Source: a candidate division LCP-89 bacterium (GTDB lineage: Bacteria; Electryoneota; B3-LCP). From it: a DNA stretch of 64,000 nt. Numbering within the stretch: position 1 is the stretch's first letter; each line of letters opens with the position of its first letter. The notes under the pieces were generated by a model that saw only the letters and a list, made by a program, of their open reading frames with translations, was not told the DNA's origin and searched no databases. Shown here in pieces: positions 70 through 61,760 of the stretch. The stretch is from NCBI GenBank assembly GCA_025774555.1, contig JALGVT010000007.1, positions 17,327-81,326 on the forward strand, in the 5' to 3' direction. Made by a program: the position numbers and the translations under genes.

Positions 70-1773
70 ATGAGAAGCTACGGTTGCATTGTCCTGGTGA
101 TCCTCTTAATCCTCTCCCACCTGTCTATCGCAGGCAATGCGAAAACAAACGATCCTCAGACCGACATCGTCAGTTGGACAACGGGCGCGAATATGCCCAC
201 TTCACGGTATGCTGCCGTAACCGGTTGCGCCTTCGGCTATATGTTCGTCGCGCAGGGCGCCATCACCAATACCTTCATGCCCTTCCATACAGCCGTATGT
301 GAACGGTACGATATTGTCAACGATACCTGGAGCAACATGAATCCCGCCCCGACGGCACGCAGAGCGATGGGGCTGGGCCAGGTCCAGGTCGGCGACGTCA
401 TGTATTCAGTGGGCGGCATAACGGGAATGAACATGTACACCGGCGCCAACGAAGCCTATGACATGGGCGGAAATGCCTGGACCGTGTTAGCTCCCTGCAC
501 CCCCCGCGCCGCGCATGGAGCCGGCACAGCATTCTGGATCAACTCTCACGTTTATGTCTTCGGAGGAATCGATGCAACAGGAGCTTTGTTGACATCGACA
601 GAGCGTTATGATATCTTTGCCAATTTCTGGGGACCGGTTGCTCCACTCCCCGTCGCGACCGCCAATTGCGCGGGAGCCAGTTTGAACAATAAAATCTACT
701 GCATCGGAGGCGATACTGGCGGGGGAATGACGTCGGCAGCCTGGGTTTACGATCCCGCCTGGGACACCTGGTCAGCGATTGCCAACCTTCCCGCTCCGCG
801 CAGGTATTGCACCGCGGTAGGCGATCCGACAGGCAACAGAGTCTATGTGTTCGGCGGTGAGATCGCGGGATCATTTACAGCTTCAGTGCTTTCATACGAT
901 CCTACCACCGATATATGGGTGGATGAAGGGAATATGCCGGGAGCCCGGGGATGGGCGGCTTGTGGTCAGGATTACAATGGATATGGATATGTTTTTGGTG
1001 GCGGATCGGGGATTGTCATGGTCCCTAATTTCAATAATAATACTTGGATTGGTCAGTTTCCGCCGAGTATGGCCGTCGATATCACCTACGTTTCCGGTTC
1101 TCCCGTCCCGGCAAATGGAGGGAACATCAACTTTGACATCTACATCGCAAATACCAGTATGTCCGCGCTGGCTTTCGACGCCTGGCTGGATATCGTCTAT
1201 CAGGGTGGAGCGCCGTCAACCGTGGTGCTTCGGTCGTTTACTAACTACCTTCCGGGTTGGGCGATTAACCGGCCCAACATGTACTATCCCATTTCCGGGA
1301 GTTACGCCGGAGGGAATTATGACATGTATGTCCGTGTGGGCTCCAATCCGAATGTCATCTGGGCGCAGGACAGCTTCGCCTTCACGAAATCCGGCGCCGC
1401 TGAAGCAGGTATTCCTTTTATACCCTTCAAAACCACAGCACCTTTCCCTGATCCATTTGGTGAGATAGATAAGGGTGAGGGCTTGGCAGGGCGAGGAGAC
1501 CTCGCCCCTACGGAATTTGCTCTGCATGGGGCGTATCCCAATCCGTTCAATCCTTCAACGTCTATCTCATTTGACCTGCCTGAATCCTGTCATCTAAGTC
1601 TGACAATCTACGATTTACAAGGACGAGTAGTTGCTGAGTTAGTTGATGGTGTTAGGGATGCTGGCACTCATGAAATAAACTGGAATGCTTCAGGAATGGC
1701 ATCAGGTTTGTATTTCTACCGTCTTGAGGCAGGAGAATTCACCGCGTCAGGGAAGATGGTGCTGATGAAGTGA
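70..1773 (+). CDS. Secreted Kelch/beta-propeller-like protein with conserved pre-CTD module and T9SS (Por) C-terminal sorting domain
   Basis: RBS ggagg 6 nt upstream; N-terminal signal peptide; VYVFGG/IYCIGG Kelch-like motifs; C-terminal ...YPNPFNPSTSISF...GKMVLMK matches the T9SS CTD consensus; ~190-aa pre-CTD module shared with 22318..24279 and 29877..32810. Confidence 0.75.
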   Translation: MRSYGCIVLVILLILSHLSIAGNAKTNDPQTDIVSWTTGANMPTSRYAAVTGCAFGYMFVAQGAITNTFMPFHTAVCERYDIVNDTWSNMNPAPTARRAMGLGQVQVGDVMYSVGGITGMNMYTGANEAYDMGGNAWTVLAPCTPRAAHGAGTAFWINSHVYVFGGIDATGALLTSTERYDIFANFWGPVAPLPVATANCAGASLNNKIYCIGGDTGGGMTSAAWVYDPAWDTWSAIANLPAPRRYCTAVGDPTGNRVYVFGGEIAGSFTASVLSYDPTTDIWVDEGNMPGARGWAACGQDYNGYGYVFGGGSGIVMVPNFNNNTWIGQFPPSMAVDITYVSGSPVPANGGNINFDIYIANTSMSALAFDAWLDIVYQGGAPSTVVLRSFTNYLPGWAINRPNMYYPISGSYAGGNYDMYVRVGSNPNVIWAQDSFAFTKSGAAEAGIPFIPFKTTAPFPDPFGEIDKGEGLAGRGDLAPTEFALHGAYPNPFNPSTSISFDLPESCHLSLTIYDLQGRVVAELVDGVRDAGTHEINWNASGMASGLYFYRLEAGEFTASGKMVLMK

Positions 1774-29492: not shown

Positions 29493-29504
29493 ATCCCTCA
29501 GAAT

Positions 29505-29563
29505 TGTCATTCCGGGCGACGAACCGGGATCCGGTAGGGGCAACGCGTGCGTTGTCCTTTTTT
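29505..29563 (+). terminator. 3' element: tgtcattcc motif + GTAGGGGCAACGCGTGCGTTGTCC hairpin + T6
   Basis: same architecture as 1787..1851. Confidence 0.55.
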
Positions 29564-29876: not shown

Positions 29877-32810
29877 ATGAGAAGTTGCCTGCTTGCACTG
29901 TTTTGTGCATTGATTGCATTACCCGTAATTGCTGCTCCGGTGACTACCGCCGATCAAGCAGTAGATAAAATGGAAAAAATGGCTCTGCCTGACGGTAAAG
30001 ATGAAGTCATTCTTCAGGTGTGGGGTCCGGTTCCTGCCGGGACGGAAGTTCTGGGATGCAGTGAACACGTGATGACAACTCCCGCAGATGGGTACGTTAT
30101 CTTCATCGATGACTACCCGACCGCAAACCTGTTCCACCCGGTGCGCTATGCTTTCGTGAGTTCGGGTACCGGCGAGGTTACGGTTGTCGACGCGTCAAGT
30201 CCACCTGAGAATTATGCTGATTACGAAAGAATAGAGACGCGTATCTGGAACCAGCTATCCGCTCTTGAAAACCGCAGAGCGCCCAAGCCCGCCGCACCGC
30301 ACGAACCCATTGACAGCGACCGCTGGGCAGTTTTAATGAACGGCGGACACGATTCAGGCAACAACCATATCCGGTACTGGAACGATCTGTCGAATATCTA
30401 TATGGCTTTGAATGCGGTGTACGGTTTTGCTGATGACCACATCATCGTGCTCTGTTCTGACGGCTTGAATCCCGCGCCGGATCAATCGAACGGGCAGAAT
30501 TCCGATCCGGATTTGGACGGCGATGGCGATGATGACATCATGTTCCAGTGCGATCTGGCAAACGTGGATGCGGTATTCGCCAATCTGGTGACGACACTGG
30601 TGCCAGAAGATAAACTGTTCATATTTTCTACAGATCATGGCAGCAGCGATGGTGGCTGGAGCACTCATTTCAACCTCTGGAACCATGAAGAGCTGTTGGA
30701 TTCGCATTTCGCGTCTCTGCTGGCAGCCCTGCCCCAGTGTGAAGTCATCTGTACATTCGAACCCTGCTTTTCAGGCGGATTCTTAGATGACGTGGTCGTT
30801 CCTCCAGGACCGATAGTCGCTTCCTCCTCCTGCAGACATGATGAATATTCCTGGGCAATGCCGCCGGACTATATGTACGACACCTATGTATTTCACTGGA
30901 CAGCGGCAGTCAAGGGGGAAGACGCTTATGGTGTCGTCGTGGATGCTGATTACAACAGCGACGGCGTAGTTACCATGGACGAAGCGTTCATCTATGCCGA
31001 AATACATGATACTTCAGATGAAGAACCGCAATATGGCGACTATCCCGTTGGCATCGGGGCAGGGATTTCACTCTGGCCCACAGGAACGGGACCATTCCTG
31101 GTGGTGGCGGATAAGGAATTCGACGATATCGGCGGCAACAACAACGGCGCTCCGGATCCGGGTGAAACAGTGTCGATGTTGGTGACTTTGTCCAATGTCG
31201 GAAATGGAATAGCGGAAAACATTACCGGTACCCTTACAACAACAGATCCCTACTTGACAGTAACACAGAATTATGCCACATATCCGGATTTAGGGCAGTT
31301 TGAGCAGGGACAGGGAACACCCGAATATATGCTAGATATAAGTAGCGCCTGCCCGCAGGGTCAAAGCGTTGTCTGCGATATGCACATTACCGCTAACGGC
31401 GGCTACGAGAACGACGTGGTCGTGAGCTTCACAGTCGGAGACCCGGTGTACGATCCGTGCGGACCGGACAGTTACGGTTATATGGCGTACGACCCCTTCG
31501 ATGAACCGGAATTCCCGGTGTACGAATGGGTGGAAATCTGCGCTGATTCGGGTGGACCCGGGACGCTGGTCAACTTCACAATGGACGATGAAACCTTCCA
31601 ATTTGACCTGCCCTTCGATTTTCAGTATTACGGGCAGTCGTTCACGCGTTACACCATTGCGGCGAATGGCTGGATCGGTATGGGCGATATTCTAGAAGAC
31701 GATTACAGCAATTCCGGCATCCCTGACAGCGATGGACCGAACGGAATGATAGCGCTTTACTGGGAAGATCTGTCGCCGCAAAGAGTCAATTCGGGCAGAG
31801 TGTGGAACTGGTACGATGAAACCGATCACATGCTGATCGTGGAATACAACCACATCGAACAATACGCGCCGACGGGTTCGTTCGAGACCTTCCAAGTGAT
31901 CCTGCTGGATCCCGATTACTATCCAACTGGCACCAATGACGGACGCATAATATTCCAGTACAAAGATATGTCGGCGACCGCGCAGACTGAAGGAACTGTC
32001 GGCATTGAAAATCCCGGCGAAACGATAGGGTTGGAGTATCTCTACGACGGGTCGTATGATCTCCATGCATCGCAGATCAGGAATGAGATGGCGATTCTAT
32101 TCACCACGGTGGGCAGTGTGCCGGAAATGACTATCGCTCTGACCTATGTATCCGGATCGCCGGTTCCTGCCGGTGGCGGGAATATCTACTTCGACGTGTA
32201 TGTCGAAAACGCCGGATTGACGCCGTTGAGCTTCGATGCCTGGCTGGAGATAGTCTACGAGGGTGGCACGCCCAGTACGGTCGTGATGCGCTCCTTTACT
32301 AATTACCAACCCGGTTGGACGATCAACCGTCCCAATATGTTCTTCCCGGTGCCGGGCAGTTACGCCTCCGGCAATTACACCTTCACCGGCAAAGTCGGCG
32401 TTCACCCTTCAGTCGTCTGGGATGAGAGTGGTTTCCCGTTTGTTAAATCCGGGACCGATTACGTTGCAGGGTTTATACCGTGGGTGCCGGACGGTGTGCC
32501 CAACCCGTTTGATGAGATTGACAAGGGCGACGCACGCGTCGCCCCTACGGAGTTCACACTATTGGGCGCGTATCCCAATCCCTTTAATCCTACAACAGCT
32601 ATCAGCTATCAGCTTTCAGCGGTCAGTCTCGTAAACCTATCGGTTTACGATATATCTGGAAGAAAAGTAGCGGAACTGGTAGACGGTTGGAGAAATGCGG
32701 GTGTGCATGAGGCGACGTTTGATGCTTCTGATCTCGCTTCCGGCATCTACATCTACCGCATTGAAGCAGGTGATTTCAGTGCGGTGAGGAAGATGGTGTT
32801 GGTGAAATAA
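29877..32810 (+). CDS. Secreted caspase-fold cysteine peptidase (C25 gingipain-like) with pre-CTD module and T9SS C-terminal sorting domain
   Basis: RBS aggagg; signal peptide; FSTDHGSS (His) and CTFEPCFSGGF (Cys) dyad in gingipain/clostripain order; C-terminal 200 aa ~85-90% identical to 22318 gene module; CTD ...GIYIYRIEAGDFSAVRKMVLVK. Confidence 0.6.
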   Translation: MRSCLLALFCALIALPVIAAPVTTADQAVDKMEKMALPDGKDEVILQVWGPVPAGTEVLGCSEHVMTTPADGYVIFIDDYPTANLFHPVRYAFVSSGTGEVTVVDASSPPENYADYERIETRIWNQLSALENRRAPKPAAPHEPIDSDRWAVLMNGGHDSGNNHIRYWNDLSNIYMALNAVYGFADDHIIVLCSDGLNPAPDQSNGQNSDPDLDGDGDDDIMFQCDLANVDAVFANLVTTLVPEDKLFIFSTDHGSSDGGWSTHFNLWNHEELLDSHFASLLAALPQCEVICTFEPCFSGGFLDDVVVPPGPIVASSSCRHDEYSWAMPPDYMYDTYVFHWTAAVKGEDAYGVVVDADYNSDGVVTMDEAFIYAEIHDTSDEEPQYGDYPVGIGAGISLWPTGTGPFLVVADKEFDDIGGNNNGAPDPGETVSMLVTLSNVGNGIAENITGTLTTTDPYLTVTQNYATYPDLGQFEQGQGTPEYMLDISSACPQGQSVVCDMHITANGGYENDVVVSFTVGDPVYDPCGPDSYGYMAYDPFDEPEFPVYEWVEICADSGGPGTLVNFTMDDETFQFDLPFDFQYYGQSFTRYTIAANGWIGMGDILEDDYSNSGIPDSDGPNGMIALYWEDLSPQRVNSGRVWNWYDETDHMLIVEYNHIEQYAPTGSFETFQVILLDPDYYPTGTNDGRIIFQYKDMSATAQTEGTVGIENPGETIGLEYLYDGSYDLHASQIRNEMAILFTTVGSVPEMTIALTYVSGSPVPAGGGNIYFDVYVENAGLTPLSFDAWLEIVYEGGTPSTVVMRSFTNYQPGWTINRPNMFFPVPGSYASGNYTFTGKVGVHPSVVWDESGFPFVKSGTDYVAGFIPWVPDGVPNPFDEIDKGDARVAPTEFTLLGAYPNPFNPTTAISYQLSAVSLVNLSVYDISGRKVAELVDGWRNAGVHEATFDASDLASGIYIYRIEAGDFSAVRKMVLVK

Positions 32811-37534: not shown

Positions 37535-37589
37535 TGTCATCCCGGACTAGATCCGGGATTGAGTAGGGGCGAGATCACCTCGCCCCTAC
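37535..37589 (+). repeat. 3' element: tgtcatcc motif + hairpin (tcccgga/tccggga) + P1-variant GTAGGGGCGAGATCACCTCGCCCCTAC
   Basis: perfect 12-bp GTAG-headed palindrome. Confidence 0.6.
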
Positions 37590-40842: not shown

Positions 40843-40937
40843 TGTCATCCTGGACTTGATCCGGGATCCAGAAAATGTCGGAGTCGGGGACGACTCCGAC
40901 TACGGAGAGGTAGGGACGCACGCTGGTGCGCCTTTTT
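40843..40937. terminator. 3' element: tgtcatcc + hairpin + P2 palindrome (40877..40905) + GTAGGGACGCAC-GCTG-GTGCGCC + T5; bidirectional terminator with convergent leuC
   Basis: stem-loops and T-tract read directly. Confidence 0.55.
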
Positions 40938-40959: not shown

Positions 40960-42201
40960 TTATAATCCTGCTATCTCACCTTGCAGCGCTGACAACGCTG
41001 CTGTAACCGGAGAACAGAGGTAGGTCTCCCCCGCTCCCTGTTTGCCAGCGAAATTACGGTTGGAGGTCGATAGCTGCACTTCGCCTTTACCGGTCATCCC
41101 CACCTGCCCGGAAGCGCATCCCCCGCACCCGGCGCCAGTGATAATAGCTCCAGCATTGAAAAGGTCGTTCAGCAGGTCTTCTGCCAGCATCTGACGATAG
41201 ACTTCTCGCGTGGCGGGTACTATCTTCAACATCACACCTGAAGCGATTCTATTTCCGCGCAGGACATCAGCAACGGCGCGTATGTCCTCGATACGTCCGT
41301 TGGTACACGATCCAATGAATACCGAATCGATCTTTCTACCGGCAACTTCACGCACCGGCACCACGTTATCGGGACTGGGCGGGCAAGCGATCATCGGTTC
41401 TAAATTGGAAATGCCGATTTCGATGGTATCGACGTAATCTGCGCCATCATCCGCGATGAACGGCTTAATGCCCGATTTACCGCTTCTCTGCTCACAATAT
41501 TCGATCACCTCCATAGAAGGATAAATAAAGTAGCTGATTGCGCCTGTCTCCGTCGCCATCGAAGCCAAAGTTATGCGTCCGGAGAGGTTCAACGCATTGA
41601 CCGCTGCTCCTTCGATTTCAACGGCGCGCCCTAAAGCTCCAGCGGAACCGAGAGTGCCGACGAGTTTTAAGGTCAGGTCTCGTGGGGTGCAGTTTCCCGG
41701 CAGTTTTCCCTTGAAAATCACCTTCATCGTAGGCGGGACTTCAAACCAGGTTTTTCCCGCTTTAAAAATAAACGCTATATCCTGGTCGCCCATTCCCTGA
41801 CCGAAAGCTCCGATAGCGCCCATGATGTTGAAGTGGCTGTCAGTGCCGACGCCGGTGGCTCCGGGCCAGACCAGACCCTCTTCGATGGCGGTATGAGTGC
41901 CGATGCCGCGGTCCACGTCGAAGACTTTGATATCGTTCTCGCGGGCAAAACAGCGGCAGATATGCTGATTGTCCGCATAACCGATGGTGTTCGCCGGAGC
42001 GTTCGTATCGAAGGTGAAATAGGTCTTCGAAACGTCTCCAACCGGATCATCTGAGTAGTTTTTCTTCAGGTTTCCAACGACGTTGGCTCCACCGAAATCC
42101 CTTGCCGAACGGTAGTCTATATCCATCCAGACGATGTCGCCGGGTTTCGGATCGCTGCTGCTGTGAGCGCTGATGATTTTCTCAATTATTGTTTGTGGCA
42201 T
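40960..42201 (-). CDS. leuC: 3-isopropylmalate/homoaconitate dehydratase large subunit, short (archaeal-type) LeuC/HacA
   Basis: aconitase-family motifs GTDSHFNIMGAIGAFGQGMG, IGSCTNGRIEDI, STSNRNFAGKQG; 413 aa; no adjacent small subunit. Confidence 0.75.
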   Translation of the reverse strand: MPQTIIEKIISAHSSSDPKPGDIVWMDIDYRSARDFGGANVVGNLKKNYSDDPVGDVSKTYFTFDTNAPANTIGYADNQHICRCFARENDIKVFDVDRGIGTHTAIEEGLVWPGATGVGTDSHFNIMGAIGAFGQGMGDQDIAFIFKAGKTWFEVPPTMKVIFKGKLPGNCTPRDLTLKLVGTLGSAGALGRAVEIEGAAVNALNLSGRITLASMATETGAISYFIYPSMEVIEYCEQRSGKSGIKPFIADDGADYVDTIEIGISNLEPMIACPPSPDNVVPVREVAGRKIDSVFIGSCTNGRIEDIRAVADVLRGNRIASGVMLKIVPATREVYRQMLAEDLLNDLFNAGAIITGAGCGGCASGQVGMTGKGEVQLSTSNRNFAGKQGAGETYLCSPVTAALSALQGEIAGL

Positions 42202-42241
42202 AATAATTATTCAGATTTATTTATCTTTGTCATTTACTGGT

Positions 42242-42266
42242 GGGGCAGACATTCCTGTCTGCCTAT
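42242..42266 (+). repeat. RAYT-flanking hairpin (left copy)
   Basis: ggtggggcagacattcctgtctgcc. Confidence 0.6.
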
Positions 42267-42745
42267 TTGTCAGATTATCAGTATCTTGTATGCAAATATA
42301 AAGAGCAGAATATTCCTCTGGGACACTGCACAATTCTGCTTTTATAGGATTATTATAGATATAATTGAGTTTCTCTAGAAATTCGTTATAATCTCTTATG
42401 ATTCGATCAAAAGATTCATCCTGCCAGATTGAGCCTGTTTTACGACGAAGTTGATTGATTTTTCTTGCAGATACTCCCTTGATTCCTTTCATAATCCTAG
42501 AAAGAGGAAACTGCGTAAAAGGTGTAATAATAAGATGAACATGGTCTGGCATTATTACCGCAGCAGATAATCTGTAATATTTTTGATCTCCATTTAGTAT
42601 GTGATTTAACACCGCAACTCGCTCAGAATATGAGATATTATCGTGTTTAACTCGAAAGGTAATATAATAGGCAGCATCTTCAAGTATCCAATGTGGAAGC
42701 CTCCGATGGGCGATCTGAAAAACAGGTTTTTCAGTGGCAGACAAG

Positions 42746-42774
42746 AATGTCTGCCCCACCCTTTTCTTGGTTTC
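42746..42774 (-). repeat. RAYT-flanking hairpin (right copy, inverted)
   Basis: revcomp reads gggtggggcagacattcttgtctgccactg. Confidence 0.6.
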
Positions 42775-42854
42775 ATTCACCCAAGCCCCACCATTTCCTT
42801 GCTTTCAGCAATCCAATTCTCTGTTAATATAATTTCCTACTGCATTGTTACCTT

Positions 42855-43973
42855 TTATTTCCTCACCCAGTTCCTGAATTTCTGATAGCTGATGCTTGCG
42901 GTCAAATCAAAGCGGAGTTCATCGATAAAATCGACGTCGCTGCCGGGTTCATATTCGCGGACTACGTTCAGTCTTGCCCATTCGGGTCCAAGACCAATTC
43001 CGGTATATATGAACGAACGGTGCGCCTTATGATCTACTGACCAGCCAACGCGTCCACTAAACAGACAGTACAGATTCGCCTCAAAACCGAGGCGTGAGGT
43101 CCAGCCACCTTCATGGTCGCCTCCGCCCCATGCTTGAAAGAGCGCATCCGTGGCTTTGTTGTATCCACCGAGAGGATGATCCGGGTCGTCGCTCTTCTTG
43201 CGTGATACGAGTAGCTTCTGCAGTTGTGCGGCAACTCTGAAATCCCAGATTCGCCCCTCATAGACGCCCCATAAAATATCGCTGCGGAAGGTCTGGGGCA
43301 GCATTTCATAATCAGGCGAGTAATCATATTCAATTCTGCCGCCTAAGTTCTGAAATGCCAATCCAACGGCAATACCTCTCGAGAATGGTCTGCCGAATCT
43401 GAAACGTGGATCCCGCTTCCTGATTTCCGGTTTGCCTATCGTGATTTGTGGGAAAAGATTGCTGTAGACCGCTCCAAAATCAAAAGCCATCTTGTAGGAT
43501 TTTGACCAGGATTCGTTCAAAGGTGTAAACCCAGCCTTGCTGGTGGTGAGAATTTTAAAAGCCAACCCGAGTGACAGATCCACCCTCCTGGATGGTTTTC
43601 CCGCGATAATTAAAGCTGAACCTTCCTCATCAGGATAATCTGTTCCCTCGATACCCTGCCGGAAGTAATAGCTAAAGCCCAGGTATCCGAATTCGCTGTG
43701 CGCGCCGAAGATCACGTTGAAGTAATCGTAATTGGGACCTGAATGTGGATGCGGATTCAGATATGCCGATCCATTTAAATCAGCCGTCAATGCCTGAGCA
43801 GCGGGATTATACAGTCCGCCTGATGCATCTCCCAGCAGCGTTCCGCAGCCTCCCATACCGAGCGATCTCGCACCAGTTTCAAGCACAAGAATCTTCCCGG
43901 CGGTGTTAATGTCATACGACCAGGCTGGCAGGGAAAGCAATATACTGAATAGAATGACGAGGGGCTTTTTCAT
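42855..43973 (-). CDS. Outer-membrane beta-barrel protein, PorV(LptO)/FadL-like
   Basis: signal peptide; ETGARSLGMGGCGTLLGDASGGLYNPAA resembles the conserved N-terminal motif of PorV/FadL-type barrels; aromatic C-terminus ...FRNWVRK. Confidence 0.4.
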   Translation of the reverse strand: MKKPLVILFSILLSLPAWSYDINTAGKILVLETGARSLGMGGCGTLLGDASGGLYNPAAQALTADLNGSAYLNPHPHSGPNYDYFNVIFGAHSEFGYLGFSYYFRQGIEGTDYPDEEGSALIIAGKPSRRVDLSLGLAFKILTTSKAGFTPLNESWSKSYKMAFDFGAVYSNLFPQITIGKPEIRKRDPRFRFGRPFSRGIAVGLAFQNLGGRIEYDYSPDYEMLPQTFRSDILWGVYEGRIWDFRVAAQLQKLLVSRKKSDDPDHPLGGYNKATDALFQAWGGGDHEGGWTSRLGFEANLYCLFSGRVGWSVDHKAHRSFIYTGIGLGPEWARLNVVREYEPGSDVDFIDELRFDLTASISYQKFRNWVRK

Positions 43974-44776
43974 CAGGAAATATCCCTCTGCGCAGGACCG
44001 TCATATTCAAACGGAGGCGGTCCCAATTTTCGCATGGTTTTTTCACGAGTCCATTCTTCGATGACATGAGCGATCAAACCGGGAACGCGGCTGATGATGA
44101 AGAAGCCTTTGCCCAAGCGCCAGTCGAATCCCATCTCGCTGATGACCGCGGCAATAGCGCCGTCCACGTTCAGCGGAAGGTCTCTGCCGGAGGTACGTTC
44201 CAGCTCGTCCTGAACGGCTACAGCCAATTCGATGATCCTGCCCTTATATCCGATTCTTTCAGCGATTTCCAGCATCTTGACGGTGCGAGGATCCCGCTTA
44301 TGGATGCGGTGACCGTAACCGGGCATACGGATTTTCTTTTCCTTTAAATCGGCGACAAGCTGCACCGCCAGTTCTTCAGGCGTCCCCTCCTTTTGCACCC
44401 ATTCCTGTAGGATTTTCGCGCATTTTTCAATGGCTCCGCCGTGTGAATCGCCGATAGTCAGTACTCCGGCTGCGACGGCTGCGTTCAGGGAATTGCCTCC
44501 CGAGAAAACGGTGCGCGCGGCGAGATTCGAGGGCGGCGTGGGACCGTGATCGATCGATGAGACGAGCATCGCTTCTATCATTCTGCGCTGCTGGTTATCA
44601 GGAAGTTCGCCCTTGAGAATCAGATATATTACGTCGGAGAATGACAGATGCTCCATGATGTCGGCGATATCGTAGCCGCGCACTCGTATCTGACCGCCGC
44701 CGATATCGGTTATGGCAGTTTTCCAGGTTGGTTCTGACATGATTTCCTCTCTGAAATCCGTTAATTCCAGTTCCAA
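43973..44776 (-). CDS. Citrate synthase family short-form protein (citryl-CoA lyase-like)
   Basis: 267 aa; GYGHRIHK signature of the citrate synthase active site, homologous to the C-terminal domain of citrate synthase/ATP-citrate lyase. Confidence 0.55.
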   Translation of the reverse strand: MELELTDFREEIMSEPTWKTAITDIGGGQIRVRGYDIADIMEHLSFSDVIYLILKGELPDNQQRRMIEAMLVSSIDHGPTPPSNLAARTVFSGGNSLNAAVAAGVLTIGDSHGGAIEKCAKILQEWVQKEGTPEELAVQLVADLKEKKIRMPGYGHRIHKRDPRTVKMLEIAERIGYKGRIIELAVAVQDELERTSGRDLPLNVDGAIAAVISEMGFDWRLGKGFFIISRVPGLIAHVIEEWTREKTMRKLGPPPFEYDGPAQRDIS

Positions 44777-44967: not shown

Positions 44968-45068
44968 GAATCCAACCTACAAAAGCTGGATCACGGAAAA
45001 ACTCGGATTATTCGGATTGCGCGGATGAATGTTACGTGGTGGTAGGGGCGAGGTTACCTCGCCCCTAC
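44968..45068 (+). repeat. 101-bp direct repeat copy 1 (ends with P1 REP 45042..45068)
   Basis: ~95% identical to 47234..47334; flanks the 45262..47160 gene. Confidence 0.7.
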
Positions 45069-45149
45069 CATTACTACATGGAAAATGGTGATCGTAAGCG
45101 CGCACAGCATGCCGAATTCCAGATATCGGTCTATGGCAAAATATTGCGC

Positions 45150-47233: not shown

Positions 47234-47334
47234 GAATCCTACCTACAAAAGCTGGATCACGGATAAGATCGGATTATTCGGATTGCGCGGATGAATGTTG
47301 CGTGGTGGTAGGGGCGAGGTTACCTCGCCCCTAC
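47234..47334 (+). repeat. 101-bp direct repeat copy 2 (ends with P1 REP 47308..47334, followed by CTAC-rich tail)
   Basis: see copy 1. Confidence 0.7.
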
Positions 47335-47410
47335 CCCTACCACTACCATTACCACTGAGGATGGCTGCGCCACACAGGAATTAATCCTCTTACTGAGTGA
47401 CTTAAACGTT

Positions 47411-49405: not shown

Positions 49406-51151
49406 ATGGTAATAAAGATATACGGTTTTTGTATGCGCGTATCAGCCCTCCTGATATTCGTTCTTACGGTTAGCTCTCCTTTATCCGCCCAGGTCATCGA
49501 AGAATGGGTTATAAGAGAAAACGGACGCGGCAACGGTCCGGATTATGCGAAGGATATAGTTATCGATCAAGATGGCAACATTATTGTTACCGGCTATTGC
49601 GATCGTTCGCTTCATCCTGATTGGGTTGACTATGATTTTGCCACAGCAAAATATGACAATTCCGGCAATACTATCTGGATTGCGCGTTATCCCGGTCTCG
49701 TTGACGAAAACGATAAAGCTTACGCGTTAGCCCTGGATGAAGCGGGCAACGTCTATGTGACCGGCGCTGGCAGCGGTCACGCTGATGATTACACTACGAT
49801 CAAATATAACTCCGATGGAGTTCAACAGTGGATGGCGCAATATACGAGTCCAGGCAATTACTATGATAAACCTAATGCGATAGCTGTGGACTCTGAAGGC
49901 AACGTCTACGTTACGGGATACAGTAACACGAGATCGTTCTATAATCACGATTACACCACTATTAAGTACAACTCCTCGGGTCAAGAGCAGTGGATAGCAA
50001 TTTATGATGGCACTGGCGGTGAAGATGATGAAGCGAAAGCAATTGTAGTTGACACAGACGGAAACGTCTACGTTACAGGTGATTGTTATGACGAGCATTT
50101 TTCCAACTACTGCATGACCATCAAGTATGATCCCGGGGGCAACAGAGTCTGGACAGCAGCTTACCATTTCCAGTTTGCCAACATAGGCTATGCCATAGCT
50201 GAAGATATGGTGCTGGACAACGCGGGCAACGTCTATATTGCCGGCTATCACGGTGATGAACGAGACTCCGAATTCCTCGTCGTGAAGTATGATTCGTTCG
50301 GCGTGGAACAGTGGGCTGAGCATATAAGTGCCAGCGGGGGCAGTTATGATTACTGTCATGCCATGACGATCGACGCTGACGCCAATCTGTACGTCACTGG
50401 TGAAGGATTCTGCAGTACCACAGATTATGTTACTATCAAACTTGATTCCGATGGAAATGTGGAGTGGATATCGTCATACGACGGGAACTGGGGTGGAGAT
50501 GATAGCGCGAACGATATAGTGGTAGATGCTGAAGGTAATGTCTACGTTACGGGAGAAAGTGAGATAGGGGCATATACTTACGAGTACGCTACTGTGAAGT
50601 ACGATCCCAACGGAGATGAAGAATGGGTTATGATTTATCCGGACAACTTGCCGGATTTCTATAGCAGCAGAGCCAGCGCTATTGCTATGGATAATGAAGG
50701 CAGCGTCTATGTTACCGGAAATTCCTATGTAGCTGAGACAAATTATGATTTTGCCACTGTAAAATACAGCCAGCCATCAGGGATAAAGGATAAAACCGTT
50801 ATCAGCGCCGAACCGTCGAAATTCAGCATAATCAGCGTTTATCCCAATCCATTCAACCCGGCAACAGTTATCAGCTTCGAGTTGCAAGCTGCAAGTTGGA
50901 TTAGATTGGATGTGTTTGGTATAAACGGGCGGAATGTAGGGACGGTAGGGGCGAGGTTACCTCGCCCCTACACGTCGGGGTCAGGGACGACCCCGACTAC
51001 GGGATTCTATCCCCCCGGCATGAACGCCATTACTTTCGATGGAACGGAGCTGACATCGGGGATATATATTTATCGACTTACTGCCGATAATGTGTCGGGG
51101 TCAGGGGCGACCCCGACTACGGCGAGTGGGAAGATAGTGCTGATTAAATAG
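49406..51151 (+). CDS. Secreted SBBP/beta-propeller repeat protein with T9SS C-terminal sorting domain interrupted in-frame by REP-like palindromes
   Basis: RBS aaggggg; signal peptide; ~8 repeats ...GN(V/I)YVTG...; CTD YPNPFNPATVISFELQ... then inserted VGARLPRPY/TSGSGTTPTT and VSGSGATPTTA segments encoded by P1/P2 palindromes; ends GKIVLIK. Confidence 0.7.
   Translation: MVIKIYGFCMRVSALLIFVLTVSSPLSAQVIEEWVIRENGRGNGPDYAKDIVIDQDGNIIVTGYCDRSLHPDWVDYDFATAKYDNSGNTIWIARYPGLVDENDKAYALALDEAGNVYVTGAGSGHADDYTTIKYNSDGVQQWMAQYTSPGNYYDKPNAIAVDSEGNVYVTGYSNTRSFYNHDYTTIKYNSSGQEQWIAIYDGTGGEDDEAKAIVVDTDGNVYVTGDCYDEHFSNYCMTIKYDPGGNRVWTAAYHFQFANIGYAIAEDMVLDNAGNVYIAGYHGDERDSEFLVVKYDSFGVEQWAEHISASGGSYDYCHAMTIDADANLYVTGEGFCSTTDYVTIKLDSDGNVEWISSYDGNWGGDDSANDIVVDAEGNVYVTGESEIGAYTYEYATVKYDPNGDEEWVMIYPDNLPDFYSSRASAIAMDNEGSVYVTGNSYVAETNYDFATVKYSQPSGIKDKTVISAEPSKFSIISVYPNPFNPATVISFELQAASWIRLDVFGINGRNVGTVGARLPRPYTSGSGTTPTTGFYPPGMNAITFDGTELTSGIYIYRLTADNVSGSGATPTTASGKIVLIK
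50945..50971 (+). repeat. P1 REP-like palindrome GTAGGGGCGAGGTTACCTCGCCCCTAC inside CDS (27 nt = 9 codons)
   Basis: identical to intergenic copies at 45042 and 47308. Confidence 0.8.
50974..51002 (+). repeat. P2 REP-like palindrome GTCGGGGTCAGGGACGACCCCGACTACGG inside CDS
   Basis: second copy inside same CDS at 51094..51122; intergenic variant at 40877..40905. Confidence 0.8.
51094..51122 (+). repeat. P2 REP-like palindrome (second intragenic copy)
   Basis: GTCGGGGTCAGGGGCGACCCCGACTACGG. Confidence 0.8.
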
Positions 51152-53121: not shown

Positions 53122-53148
53122 CCGTTAGCCGTTGGCAGTTAGTGTTTA

Positions 53149-53175
53149 GTAGGGGCGAGGTAACCTCGCCCCTAC
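53149..53175 (+). repeat. P1-variant REP GTAGGGGCGAGGTAACCTCGCCCCTAC just after stop codon, convergent with AsmA-like gene
   Basis: perfect 12-bp palindrome. Confidence 0.75.
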
Positions 53176-53198
53176 TTTAATAAATATAAGTACTTATC

Positions 53199-61556: not shown

Positions 61557-61627
61557 TGGGCGGTCGTCCAATGGCAGGACGCATGGCTCTGGACCATGTA
61601 ATCGGGGTTCGAATCCCTGCCGTCCAG
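61557..61627 (+). tRNA. tRNA-Gln (anticodon CTG)
   Basis: cloverleaf folds: acceptor TGGGCGG/CCGTCCA with U1-A72 and G73 discriminator (Gln identity elements), D arm GTCC/GGAC, anticodon stem CATGG/CCATG with loop CTCTGGA, T arm CGGGG-TTCGAAT-CCCTG; CCA not encoded. Confidence 0.8.
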
Positions 61628-61724
61628 CACGGATATATAAGTATCATAAAATCAATATCATAAGGCACTAGCGCATAATCCGAAGGTCAAAGATTCAATC
61701 TTTCCTCCGTTGCTATATAAAAAT

Positions 61725-61760
61725 AGGGGCTTAGAAGCAATTCTAAGCCCCTATTTTTTT
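61725..61760 (+). terminator. Rho-independent terminator (aggggcttagaagcaattctaagcccct + T7) downstream of tRNA-Gln
   Basis: 11-bp stem followed by attttttt. Confidence 0.7.

Follow-up and report, generated by a model that had tools for sequence, protein, structure and literature searches.

The RAYT gene analysed here and the two inverted hairpins at its ends very probably make up a small REPtron, that is, an intact RAYT bracketed by its own cognate REPs and most likely inserted at its present site, while the GTAG palindromes scattered around it would belong to other RAYT lineages. The window, by which we mean the whole stretch of 64,000 nucleotides (64 kb) of LCP-89 DNA, carries this unit in a single intergenic spacer (Table 1).

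Table 1. Positions in the window of the REP-RAYT-REP unit, its neighbouring genes and the dispersed palindromes
Feature	Position	Strand	Remarks
Spacer with the whole REP-RAYT-REP unit	42202..42854		653 nt, versus 21 nt in the closest relatives
Downstream neighbour, aconitase-family large subunit (homoaconitase / isopropylmalate dehydratase type)	40960..42201	-	Synteny anchor; P0121 100% identical; PF00330
Upstream neighbour, 372-aa protein, labelled OMP-like	42855..43973	-	Syntenic with 366-367-aa genes in L124-L126
Citrate-synthase-like gene	43973-44776		Precedes the 372-aa gene
RAYT / TnpA-REP ORF as called	42217..42780	-	187 aa, GTG start
RAYT conserved core	42301-42726	-	About residues 19-160
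HUH codons H80-V81-H82 of MPDHVHL	42535..42543	-	Invariant in the alignment; match H59/H61 of 4ER8
Y-motif codons Y140-I-Y-N-N144 (YIYNNP)	42349..42363	-	Y140, N144 and P145 invariant; align with Y115 and N119 of 4ER8
5' REP, gene orientation, GGTGGGGCAGACA-TTCT-TGTCTGCC	42736..42760	-	Foot outward; overlaps codons 8-15 (VGQTFLSA)
3' REP, GGTGGGGCAGACA-TTCC-TGTCTGCC	42239..42263	+	Foot outward; encodes the C-terminal RQTGMSAPP tail
Two tandem 32-nt units, 5' leader	42753..42816	-	78% identical; each ends in the foot GGTGGGGC
Double-foot REP GTAGGGGCGAGG-tta-CCTCGCCCCTAC, representative	45040..45070		Predicted separate family from the RAYT hairpins
Further double-foot REP copies	37563-37589, 47307-47335, 50945-50971, 53148-53176		
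Half copies and variants of the double-foot REP	1489-1511, 1826-1845, 2043-2054, 29534-29545, 32525-32548		
GTCGGRGTC...GACYCCGAC-TAC type	40877-40900, 50974-50997, 51094-51117		

An earlier note on this DNA had described the ORF with its RRLPHW and YYITF block and its MPDHVHLII motif; the ORF is real and lies on the minus strand, which that note had left unstated. Its proposed place among the Y1 transposases is borne out by a significant match to the Pfam model Y1_Tnp (E 1.4e-9, 38.5 bits against a cutoff of 23), and its assignment to the RAYT clade by the NCBIfam model NF047646 (REP_Tyr_transpos), which residues 32-158 pass by a narrow margin (84.5 bits, cutoff 80) and for which the relatives P0040 and P0055 reach 95-96 bits. 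The clade profile has the E. coli TnpA-REP structure 4ER8 as its top PDB match over nearly its full length (E 2.8e-11); from the single sequence, the similarity to it is remote (E 0.002). The catalytic residues align to those of the E. coli protein, and in an alignment of 19 sequences H80/H82, W119-Q120, Y140 and N144-P145 are invariant, with Y140 the presumed catalytic tyrosine and N144 a presumed metal ligand. Since homologues are only about 150 aa long, the first and last ~20 codons of the called ORF are best read as hairpin read-through. Two candidate alternative starts, GTG (V8) and TTG (L13), lie inside the 5' REP. The set of motifs (DHVH, WQ and YIYNNP on a core of ~150 aa) has no exact counterpart in the published table of subclasses (PMC6006769). 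By sequence criteria, the locus is a genuine RAYT (TnpA-REP, class 2) and an ordinary member of a known family.

Two inverted GTGG-footed hairpins bracket the gene, which is the layout expected of a RAYT with its cognate REPs. The earlier note had seen this arrangement, and its consensus, GGTGGGGCAGACA-TTCY-TGTCTGCC, was right, its Y standing for the difference between the two loops, TTCC and TTCT; the positions that it gave for the arms (42242..42266 and 42746..42774) were off and are replaced by those in Table 1. The arms are 25 nt each and 96% complementary, with 472 nt between them, and both fall within the ORF as called. Folded as single-stranded DNA, each arm is predicted to close a 4-nt loop with a stem of 8 bp, and its GGTGG foot stays outside the pairing (dG -8.8 to -9.4 kcal/mol, z -3.7 to -4.5). 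Only the gene-proximal one of the two tandem 32-nt units in the 5' leader runs on into a hairpin. Within the 64 kb, the 13-mer GGTGGGGCAGACA has two exact matches, both at the RAYT gene, and allowing up to three mismatches gives a count at chance level (14 found versus 12.0 expected). Away from the gene, the window holds no hairpin with the unpaired GTGG foot and the GGCAGACA stem. In the searched literature, a 16-mer of the hairpin gave no match, and 8-mers matched unrelated primers only.

The same hairpin accompanies relatives of this RAYT in other phyla, even where protein identity is only ~50%. The 25-mer recurs unchanged on both sides of P0022 (Terriglobia, L001) and P0055 (L002, with several copies per side), and a variant of it, in reversed orientation, brackets P0040 (KSB1, L003); in these three loci the CAGACA flanks were confirmed in the DNA. 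Furthermore, 31 of the 120 best homologues have hairpin-derived termini (17 N-termini and 14 C-termini), about 80% of them with the foot outward, and terminal peptides derived from GTAGGGGCGAGG were found in none of these 120. The hairpin is also dispersed in at least 120 genome stretches of Planctomycetota, Latescibacterota, Tepidisphaeraceae, Acidobacteriota, Gemmatimonadota and others, with no RAYT gene within the stretches among the matches listed. At least 214 hairpins were counted in these listed stretches; where two lie side by side, their feet point outward in 54 of 75 cases, the modal spacer being 20 nt, an arrangement that resembles REPIN doublets. One stretch, L022, carries a variant of the hairpin with a GGTAGGG foot. 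As such, the CAGACA hairpin is the predicted cognate REP of the whole RRLPHW clade, a single REP conserved to the base across many phyla, whereas REP families of Proteobacteria are usually specific to a species or genus.

How did the unit come to lie where it does? Its spacer has a GC content of ~0.35, some 15 points below the ~0.50-0.53 of the flanks. In L125 and L126, where the neighbour protein is 83% identical, the citrate-synthase-like gene is followed by a 367-aa gene, 21 nt and the aconitase-family gene, without a RAYT, and homology to the relatives resumes at window position 42207. The equivalent spacer holds a different, truncated RAYT in the sister genome L124 and a REP only in L127. 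Since its occupancy differs among these genomes, the site turns over: the spacer is syntenic, and the gene with its hairpins is polymorphic there. The nearest relatives have nothing in this spacer, and its GC is well below that of the surroundings, which makes arrival by insertion or horizontal transfer most likely. The evidence suggests that the REP-RAYT-REP unit was acquired by insertion. RAYTs are typically present once per genome and passed on vertically; simple vertical descent of this one is made less likely by its low GC and by the vacant orthologous site in L125/L126. At 83% protein identity the intergenic DNA has diverged too far to set insertion apart with certainty from precise loss in the relatives by base-level junctions. 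Low GC was rejected as proof of recent transfer, as the offset is common to all RAYTs examined, those of the clade as well as those of L124; it may be intrinsic to RAYT genes of this kind and not a sign that they arrived recently.

If the unit was inserted, it could be an autonomous, IS-like cassette that transposes or transfers whole, with the hairpins as its ends, and that recently entered between the 372-aa and aconitase-family genes. We regard this as possible, if unlikely. The turnover at the spacer just described is what such a cassette would leave, and RAYT genes lie 10-16 GC points below their host in 4/4 genomes examined; the identity of the 25-mer across phyla despite ~50% protein identity, and tandem duplications at the 5' end both in the window and in L002, point the same way. 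However, the nearest of 567 matches among 5.8 billion clustered proteins is only 57-59% identical, giving no sign of recent spread, and the inverted ends, with foot-first hairpins on opposite strands, are unlike the LE and RE of IS200/IS605. Moreover, REPtrons are held not to transpose as a unit (PMC6006769), the hairpin is nearly absent from viral contigs (three stretches, with no RAYT), and neither junctions nor target-site features could be located. A still more tentative extension would make the RRLPHW RAYT and its identical 25-nt hairpin a whole REP-RAYT-REP cassette that is still mobile and crosses phyla (Planctomycetota, Acidobacteriota, Latescibacterota, LCP-89 and others), seeding REPINs in some hosts and remaining solitary in others. 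If true, this would go against the prevailing picture, in which RAYTs are sedentary genes inherited vertically and REPtrons do not move as one piece. With its shared REP, polymorphic spacer and GC offset, the RRLPHW clade is a reasonable test case for whether RAYTs are still mobile or domesticated.

More doubtful again is the opposite reading, in which the RAYT is a dormant or domesticated relic without current REP mobilisation and the hairpins are a gene-linked structure, for instance RNA stem-loops that affect expression. The lack of further hairpin copies in the 64 kb would fit a relic, as would the position of the hairpins, one of which overlaps the probable start region, while the other, 38 nt upstream of the start codon of the next gene, overlaps the transcript's 3' end. 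Against this, the ORF is intact and retains every residue that is invariant in the RRLPHW clade. No T-run follows the hairpins, no Rfam family matches them, and the sole terminator-like call is on the non-coding strand, although the promoter and terminator scan is uninformative in such an AT-rich stretch.

The second repeat system of the window consists of GTAG palindromes, which the earlier note had rightly called abundant: GTAGGGGCGAGG with up to two mismatches has 17 matches versus 3.1 expected, a count reached in 0 of 100 shuffles, and palindromes are perfect at 37563, 45040, 47307, 50945 and 53148. Their head is indeed shared with the RAYT hairpins, but a GT[AG]G foot characterises the REP superfamily at large, so a shared foot is no evidence of a specific link. 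In stem and architecture the two kinds of element differ, and the kinship between them that the note had supposed is not upheld: the dispersed palindromes have another stem (GGGCGAGG and variants) and pair GTAG with CTAC over 12-18 bp, as opposed to the 8-bp stem with an unpaired foot at the RAYT.

In a reciprocal scan, metagenomes were searched for GTAGGGGCGAGG with a P-[DN]-H-x-H codon pattern 201-261 nt further on. Of the 38 loci obtained, 29 encode Y1 proteins, all of other lineages; RxLPHW occurred in none of the 38. Among intact RAYTs associated with GTAGGGGCGAGG, 12/17 also have a GTAGGGGCG-type REP at the 3' end. The 3' partner is often in direct orientation, its GTAG overlapping the TAG stop codon, and the inverted 12-mer alone was present in 4/24. 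The sister genome L124 has two further RAYT lineages, which share 30% and 43% identity with the RAYT of the window, and both are flanked by GTAG-footed hairpins. Each tnpA-REP has its own REP family, and double-foot REPs have been assigned to subclass 2.4 / Group 4 (PMC6006769). As far as sequence can tell, the GTAG...CTAC palindromes are a REP family apart, served by RAYTs that the window does not encode, namely subclass 2.4 / Group 4-like and YIKENP-type lineages.

The suggestion that the RAYT is the probable mobiliser of these palindromes is therefore not borne out. It would require a single protein that recognises a generic GT[AG]G foot with a GC-rich hairpin and so mobilises the palindromes along with its own hairpins, which we consider highly improbable. 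It is true that tblastn with three RAYT lineages found no second Y1 gene or remnant in the 64-kb window, that GT[AG]G and a GGGGC-like 5' end are common to both element types, that the CAGACA hairpin has the GGTAGGG variant in L022, and that one E. coli TnpA-REP serves several REP subfamilies (PMC6006769). Nevertheless, the difference in architecture, the lack of GTAG-derived flanks in all 120 clade members, the outcome of the reciprocal scan and the GTAG hairpins at other RAYTs in L124 all stand against a generic foot, and binding by E. coli TnpA-REP requires hairpin bases besides the foot (PMC3479197). In annotation, the two repeat systems that reside together here, and that their GT[AG]G foot makes easy to confuse, can now be kept apart, and the case illustrates that proximity is no evidence of a partnership between transposase and repeat.

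Lastly, an ordinary IS200/IS605 insertion sequence (class 1 TnpA) is effectively refuted: Pfam names only the generic Y1_Tnp ('Transposase IS200 like') and ISDra2 TnpA is among the single-sequence PDB matches, but NF033573 (transpos_IS200) stays at 31.8 bits under its cutoff of 55 where the RAYT model passes, the Y-motif is YxxNNP (here YIYNNP) and not Y---Q, the profile's top PDB match is TnpA-REP, the hairpins are inverted and not direct, and there is neither a tnpB-like neighbour nor a second copy in the window.

For the small REPtron that we favour, the following mode of action can be proposed. The REP comprises the 8-bp GGCAGACA stem, the TTCY loop and the unpaired 5' GTGG foot, and two such REPs, inverted and with their feet outward, are arranged like the halves of a REPIN doublet whose spacer is the transposase gene. 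If it works as E. coli TnpA-REP does, the protein would bind the foot and hairpin in single-stranded DNA, cleave nearby through Y140 with a metal held by H80/H82/N144, and rejoin the ends, and this cleavage and rejoining may copy or move REP or REPIN units. The likely substrate of the clade is the CAGACA hairpin and not the GTAG palindromes, because that hairpin is nucleotide-identical around relatives in other phyla and forms dispersed doublets in some genomes. In its LCP-89 host, the unit appears to have built no local REP population, the only copies in 64 kb being the two that flank the gene.

How does this unit compare with known systems? With IS200/IS605 (IS608 and ISDra2 TnpA) it shares the HUH/Y1 catalytic core and subterminal hairpins with a 5' guide tetranucleotide recognised in single-stranded DNA, and it differs in its score below the IS200 cutoff, its Y-motif without Q, its inverted hairpins and the lack of TnpB; nor is there any sign of multiple identical copies of the RAYT. 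The GTAG-tagged REP superfamily of REPtrons and TIRtrons (Di Nocera et al. 2013, PMC3733652) offers parallels in a foot mutated to GTGG (O. terrae GTAG-20), REP dimers, intragenic REPs, and flanks of Tyr-transposases that overlap ORF ends ('5'ov/3'ov'). However, its RAYT/TIRYT alignment contains no RRLPHW-type protein, for which reason the GGGGWSAS 'TIR' motif of that study was dropped as a lead, and the CAGACA hairpin is not printed there. Subclass 2.4 / Group 4 is characterised by NH[IFV]H, YIxNNP and a median HUH-to-Tyr distance of ~88 aa that includes a variable insert, often derived from a REP (Quentin et al. 2018, PMC6006769). It is the dispersed palindromes of the window that resemble it, with their 5' GT[AG]G ... 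C[TC]AC 3' double foot (PMC6006769) and REP insertions inside tnpA and unrelated genes. The RAYT itself, in contrast, has DHVH and only 60 aa from H80 to Y140, with no insert, so that only YIxNNP fits, and its flanks are short, single-foot GTGG hairpins instead of long or double-foot GTAG REPs.

The REPtron of E. coli K-12 (TnpA-REP/YafM, 4ER8, with GTAG-footed REP/BIME) is alike in that the HUH, Tyr and Asn ligand align (PMC3479197) and in having inverted flanking REP hairpins with an unpaired 5' GT[AG]G foot. Yet the similarity is only remote, the foot is GTGG and not GTAG, and the perfect 8-bp stem contrasts with the long, bulged and imperfect one of E. coli; the RAYT of the window moreover lacks the residues of the C-terminal extension (H123 corresponds to A148 here), and no local REP population is seen in its 64 kb. 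Also comparable is the RAYT/REPIN system of Pseudomonas fluorescens (Bertels & Rainey 2011; subclass 2.5 / Group 3), with short REPs of foot plus stem of ~12 nt, dispersed inverted doublets with a fixed spacer, and a protein of ~150 aa with WQ and a DHxH-type HUH. Here the window has YIYNNP versus YI[VI]ANP and DHVH versus DH[LF]H. The RRLPHW hosts are Planctomycetota, Acidobacteriota and FCB-group MAGs as against pseudomonads and xanthomonads, and the REP of the RRLPHW clade, rather than being species-specific, is common across phyla.

The earlier note's reading of this gene as an open reading frame with Y1 transposase motifs is borne out: the protein includes RRLPHW, YYITFR and MPDHVHLII, and it matches both Pfam Y1_Tnp (38.5 bits, E 1.4e-9, cutoff 23) and the NCBIfam RAYT equivalog NF047646 (84.5 bits, cutoff 80). 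Identity as an IS200 transposase was rejected, with model NF033573 reaching 31.8 bits against a cutoff of 55. Using a profile of the window protein and 18 homologues, the best match among solved structures was E. coli TnpA-REP (PDB 4ER8), with an almost full-length alignment at E 2.8e-11. The active site of that enzyme comprises Y115, H59/H61 and N119 (Messing et al., PMC3479197), with which Y140, H80/H82 and N144 of the window RAYT align, all of them invariant across the homologue alignment. The gene is intact, and from these conserved residues the protein is predicted to be catalytically competent. Homologues are usually ~150 aa long and span only ~76% of the ORF, of which the terminal ~20 codons at each end are hairpin read-through (VGQTFLSA... 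first, ...RQTGMSAPP last). No ATG lies between the 5' hairpin and the conserved core, and the 5' hairpin holds an in-frame GTG (V8) and TTG (L13).

A repeat search returned a single 25-nt inverted pair, 96% complementary; the inverted hairpins noticed earlier are real, but the coordinates first assigned to them need correcting by 3 nt and 10-14 nt. The sequence of each arm is GGTGG + GGCAGACA + TTCY + TGTCTGCC; as single-stranded DNA it forms an 8-bp stem with a 4-nt loop and leaves the GGTGG foot unpaired (dG about -9 kcal/mol, z -3.7 to -4.5). In gene orientation the order is 5'-foot-hairpin, gene, hairpin-foot-3', so that the feet face outward. A hairpin that has 5' GT[AG]G as its foot and lies close to a tnpA-REP gene counts as a REP (PMC6006769); by this criterion the window hairpin is a canonical REP, and the locus fits the term REPtron as used by Ton-Hoang, Di Nocera and Quentin. 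The RAYT tests on family model, catalytic motifs and flanking hairpins came out positive, those for IS200 and subclass 2.4 negative. In the window, the unit has a tandem duplication at its 5' end, the foot GGTGGGGC ending each copy and the proximal copy alone running on into the hairpin. This duplication, and a similar one at L002, could have been left by cleavage and rejoining where foot meets stem, or could stem from slippage.

Features of the window and of the loci compared with it
Feature	Location	Strand	Description
RAYT ORF	42217..42780	minus	187 aa, GTG start
Inverted hairpin pair	42239-42263 / 42736-42760		25-nt arms
RAYT core	42264-42735		GC 0.35
Spacer with RAYT	42202-42854		653 nt
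Tandem 5' end	42753-42816		two 32-nt units
In-frame palindrome	1489-1511		in ORF 70-1773 (+)
In-frame palindrome	32525-32548		in ORF 29877-32810 (+)
In-frame palindromes	50945-50997; 51094-51117		in ORF 49406-51151 (+)
Short repeat family	~29500-29530; ~37535-37560; ~40850-40875		itself a hairpin
Longer unit	45000-45070; 47265-47335		~70 nt, two copies
tRNA gene	61557-61627		Rfam RF00005, 58.8 bits
Perfect-stem hairpin	61719-61758		18-bp stem
P0022	L001, Terriglobia MAG		identical 25-mer on both sides
P0055	L002		identical 25-mer on both sides: two copies upstream, two to three downstream
KSB1 homologue	L003		flanked by variant AGTGGGACAGACATTCCTGTCTGTC, orientation reversed
Tandem hairpin + leader	L002 8858-8970		two 57-nt units
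Variant doublet	L022 6945-7016		Ignavibacteria MAG
Truncated RAYT	L124 5250-6000		97 aa, starts MPDHVH

The same hairpin, in a variant form at L003, brackets clade relatives at L001-L003, whose proteins share just 48-59% identity with the window RAYT. Hairpin-derived N-termini (VGQTFLSA-type) occur in 17 of the 120 best homologues and hairpin-derived C-termini (QTGMSAPP, GRQECLPH or ADRNVCPT-type) in 14; all such terminal peptides are reading frames of one 25-mer, and a GTAGGGGCGAGG-derived peptide was found in none of the 120. The entire RRLPHW clade has the CAGACA hairpin as its cognate, and the proposal of a RAYT with its own hairpins is supported. With one genome scanned per species, the exact hairpin was present in at least 120 stretches, with hosts including Planctomycetota, Latescibacterota, Tepidisphaeraceae, Acidobacteriota, Gemmatimonadota, Ignavibacteria and Ktedonobacterales, among others. 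These copies are dispersed, as the listed stretches, 882 kb together, contained no RAYT gene. Among the matches listed, 54 of 75 adjacent pairs have their feet facing outward, the modal spacer being 20 nt, and so share the geometry of REPINs; 130 copies have the loop TTCC and 65 have TTCT, the same two as at the window gene. The hairpin sequence was not found printed in the searchable literature. The 25-nt REP GGTGGGGCAGACATTCCTGTCTGCC is base-identical around RAYTs that are ~50% identical, and dispersed in genomes of no fewer than eight phylum-level groups. A REP family is usually confined to one species or genus, which makes this cross-phylum conservation unusual. The L022 doublet has feet GGTAGGG / CCCTACT instead of GGTGGGG / CCCCACC, and is a natural GTGG-to-GTAG foot variant inside one REP family.

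Within the window the hairpin is solitary: its 13-mer has two exact matches, both at the gene, with looser matches at chance level; a 25-mer scan allowing 4 substitutions gave no further copy in the window, and 271 kb of further loci, LCP-89-like and others, likewise yielded none. The abundant GTAG palindromes, which the earlier note tied to this RAYT by their GTAG/GTGG head and GC-rich stem, are a different family, with a double foot and a 12-18-bp stem (dG about -18) versus a single foot and an 8-bp stem. Allowing up to 2 mismatches, GTAGGGGCGAGG has 17 matches in the window against 3.1 expected, and full copies, GTAGGGGCGAGG-tta-CCTCGCCCCTAC, are perfect palindromes of 27 nt whose GTAG is paired with CTAC; related types occur as well, e.g. 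GTCGGGGTC...GACCCCGAC-TAC. Most lie in intergenic spacers, and some inside long ORFs directly before T9SS-type C-terminal tails (e.g. ...GRGDLAPTEFALHGAYPNPFNP and ...DARVAPTEFTLLGAYPNPFNP). Intragenic REPs are on record, and the recurrent position at the linker before a sorting domain is striking. In intergenic spacers the short repeat GTGTCATCC(C/T)GGACT(A/T)GATCCGGGAT often directly precedes a GTAG-type palindrome, and a double-foot palindrome forms the 3' part of the longer unit CGGATTATTCGGATTGCGCGGATGAATGTTRCGTGGTGGTAGGGGCGAGGTTACCTCGCCCCTACC. Some 90 nt downstream of the tRNA gene, the hairpin AAAAATAGGGGCTTAGAA-gcaa-TTCTAAGCCCCTATTTTT, with A and T runs alongside, is consistent with a bidirectional terminator.

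The suggestion that the window RAYT mobilizes the GTAG palindromes was not supported. Metagenomes were scanned for GTAGGGGCGAGG with, 201-261 nt downstream, the codon pattern P-[D/N]-H-x-H, which favours no RAYT clade and covers the PDHVH of the RRLPHW clade. Of 38 loci, 29 encode Y1 proteins, most with the subclass 2.4 signature (RL..YDYS..GAYFVT..VMPNHxHGI..YIxNNP and a REP-like internal insert); a second group has PDHFH/YIKENP, four are IS200-like, and RxLPHW occurs in no protein from the 38 loci. A GTAGGGGCG-type REP is also found at the 3' end, direct or inverted, in 12 of 17 intact scan RAYTs (background density 1 per 1.7 kb), and in direct orientation its GTAG often overlaps the TAG stop codon. 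At L132, L143, L149, L158 and L160 (subclass 2.4-like), the foot of the direct REP provides the transposase stop (...gtgTAGgggcgaggcatgcctcgccc), and the inserts that follow HUH have the sequence of REP peptides (RARHASPLQ, GEACLAPT, GGACPAPT).

The aconitase-family neighbour is 100% identical to its match P0121, and shares 78-83% identity with proteins from 'candidate division LCP-89' relatives. At L125/L126 (83% identical), a citrate-synthase-like gene and a 367-aa gene are followed after 21 nt by the aconitase-family gene, with no RAYT, while the window spacer holds the entire REP-RAYT-REP unit and homology picks up again at 42207; the unit thus shows presence/absence polymorphism. The 150-nt spacer of L127 contains only a REP, a different, CTAC-tailed hairpin. 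In L124 (LCP-89 B3_LCP), the equivalent spacer carries a 5'-truncated RAYT of another lineage, 43% identical to the C-terminal half of the window RAYT (NF047646, 71 bits), with GTAG-TCGGGGTC hairpins in arrays around it. A second RAYT of L124, intact and 160 aa long, is encoded downstream of the aconitase-family gene; it is 30% identical, scores 97 bits and has GTAGGGGTCGG hairpins on both sides. In the LCP-89 lineage, GTAG-footed REPs therefore partner other RAYT lineages, and the differing contents of the spacer make it a recurrent landing or turnover site. The GC of the window RAYT core compares with 0.50-0.53 in its neighbours, and clade members differ likewise from their surroundings (L001 0.55 vs 0.70, L002 0.55 vs 0.64, L003 0.31 vs 0.42). 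Low GC is typical of mobile DNA; as a 10-16-point deficit is found in every RAYT gene examined, including both of L124, whatever the host GC, it gives no date for the arrival of the gene.

By analogy with E. coli TnpA-REP (PMC3479197; PMC6006769), the window RAYT would bind foot and hairpin in single-stranded DNA, Y140 would cleave with the help of a metal bound by H80/H82/N144, and rejoining would then move REPs or REPINs. The inverted arms place the foot-first hairpins on opposite strands, which makes an IS608-style single-strand circle unlikely for the whole cassette; it could conceivably move by a REPIN-like route. RAYTs of subclass 2.4 (Bertels Group 4) have long 'double foot' REPs, with REP insertions in the tnpA-REP gene and in unrelated genes (Quentin et al. 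2018, PMC6006769), a description that the dispersed palindromes of the window match exactly. Di Nocera's alignment has no RRLPHW protein among its sequences. The motif set of the window RAYT itself (DHVH / WQ / YIYNNP, ~150-aa core, 60 aa from HUH to Tyr, short GTGG-foot REP) has no exact counterpart in the 2018 subclass table, where 2.5 and 2.7 come closest.
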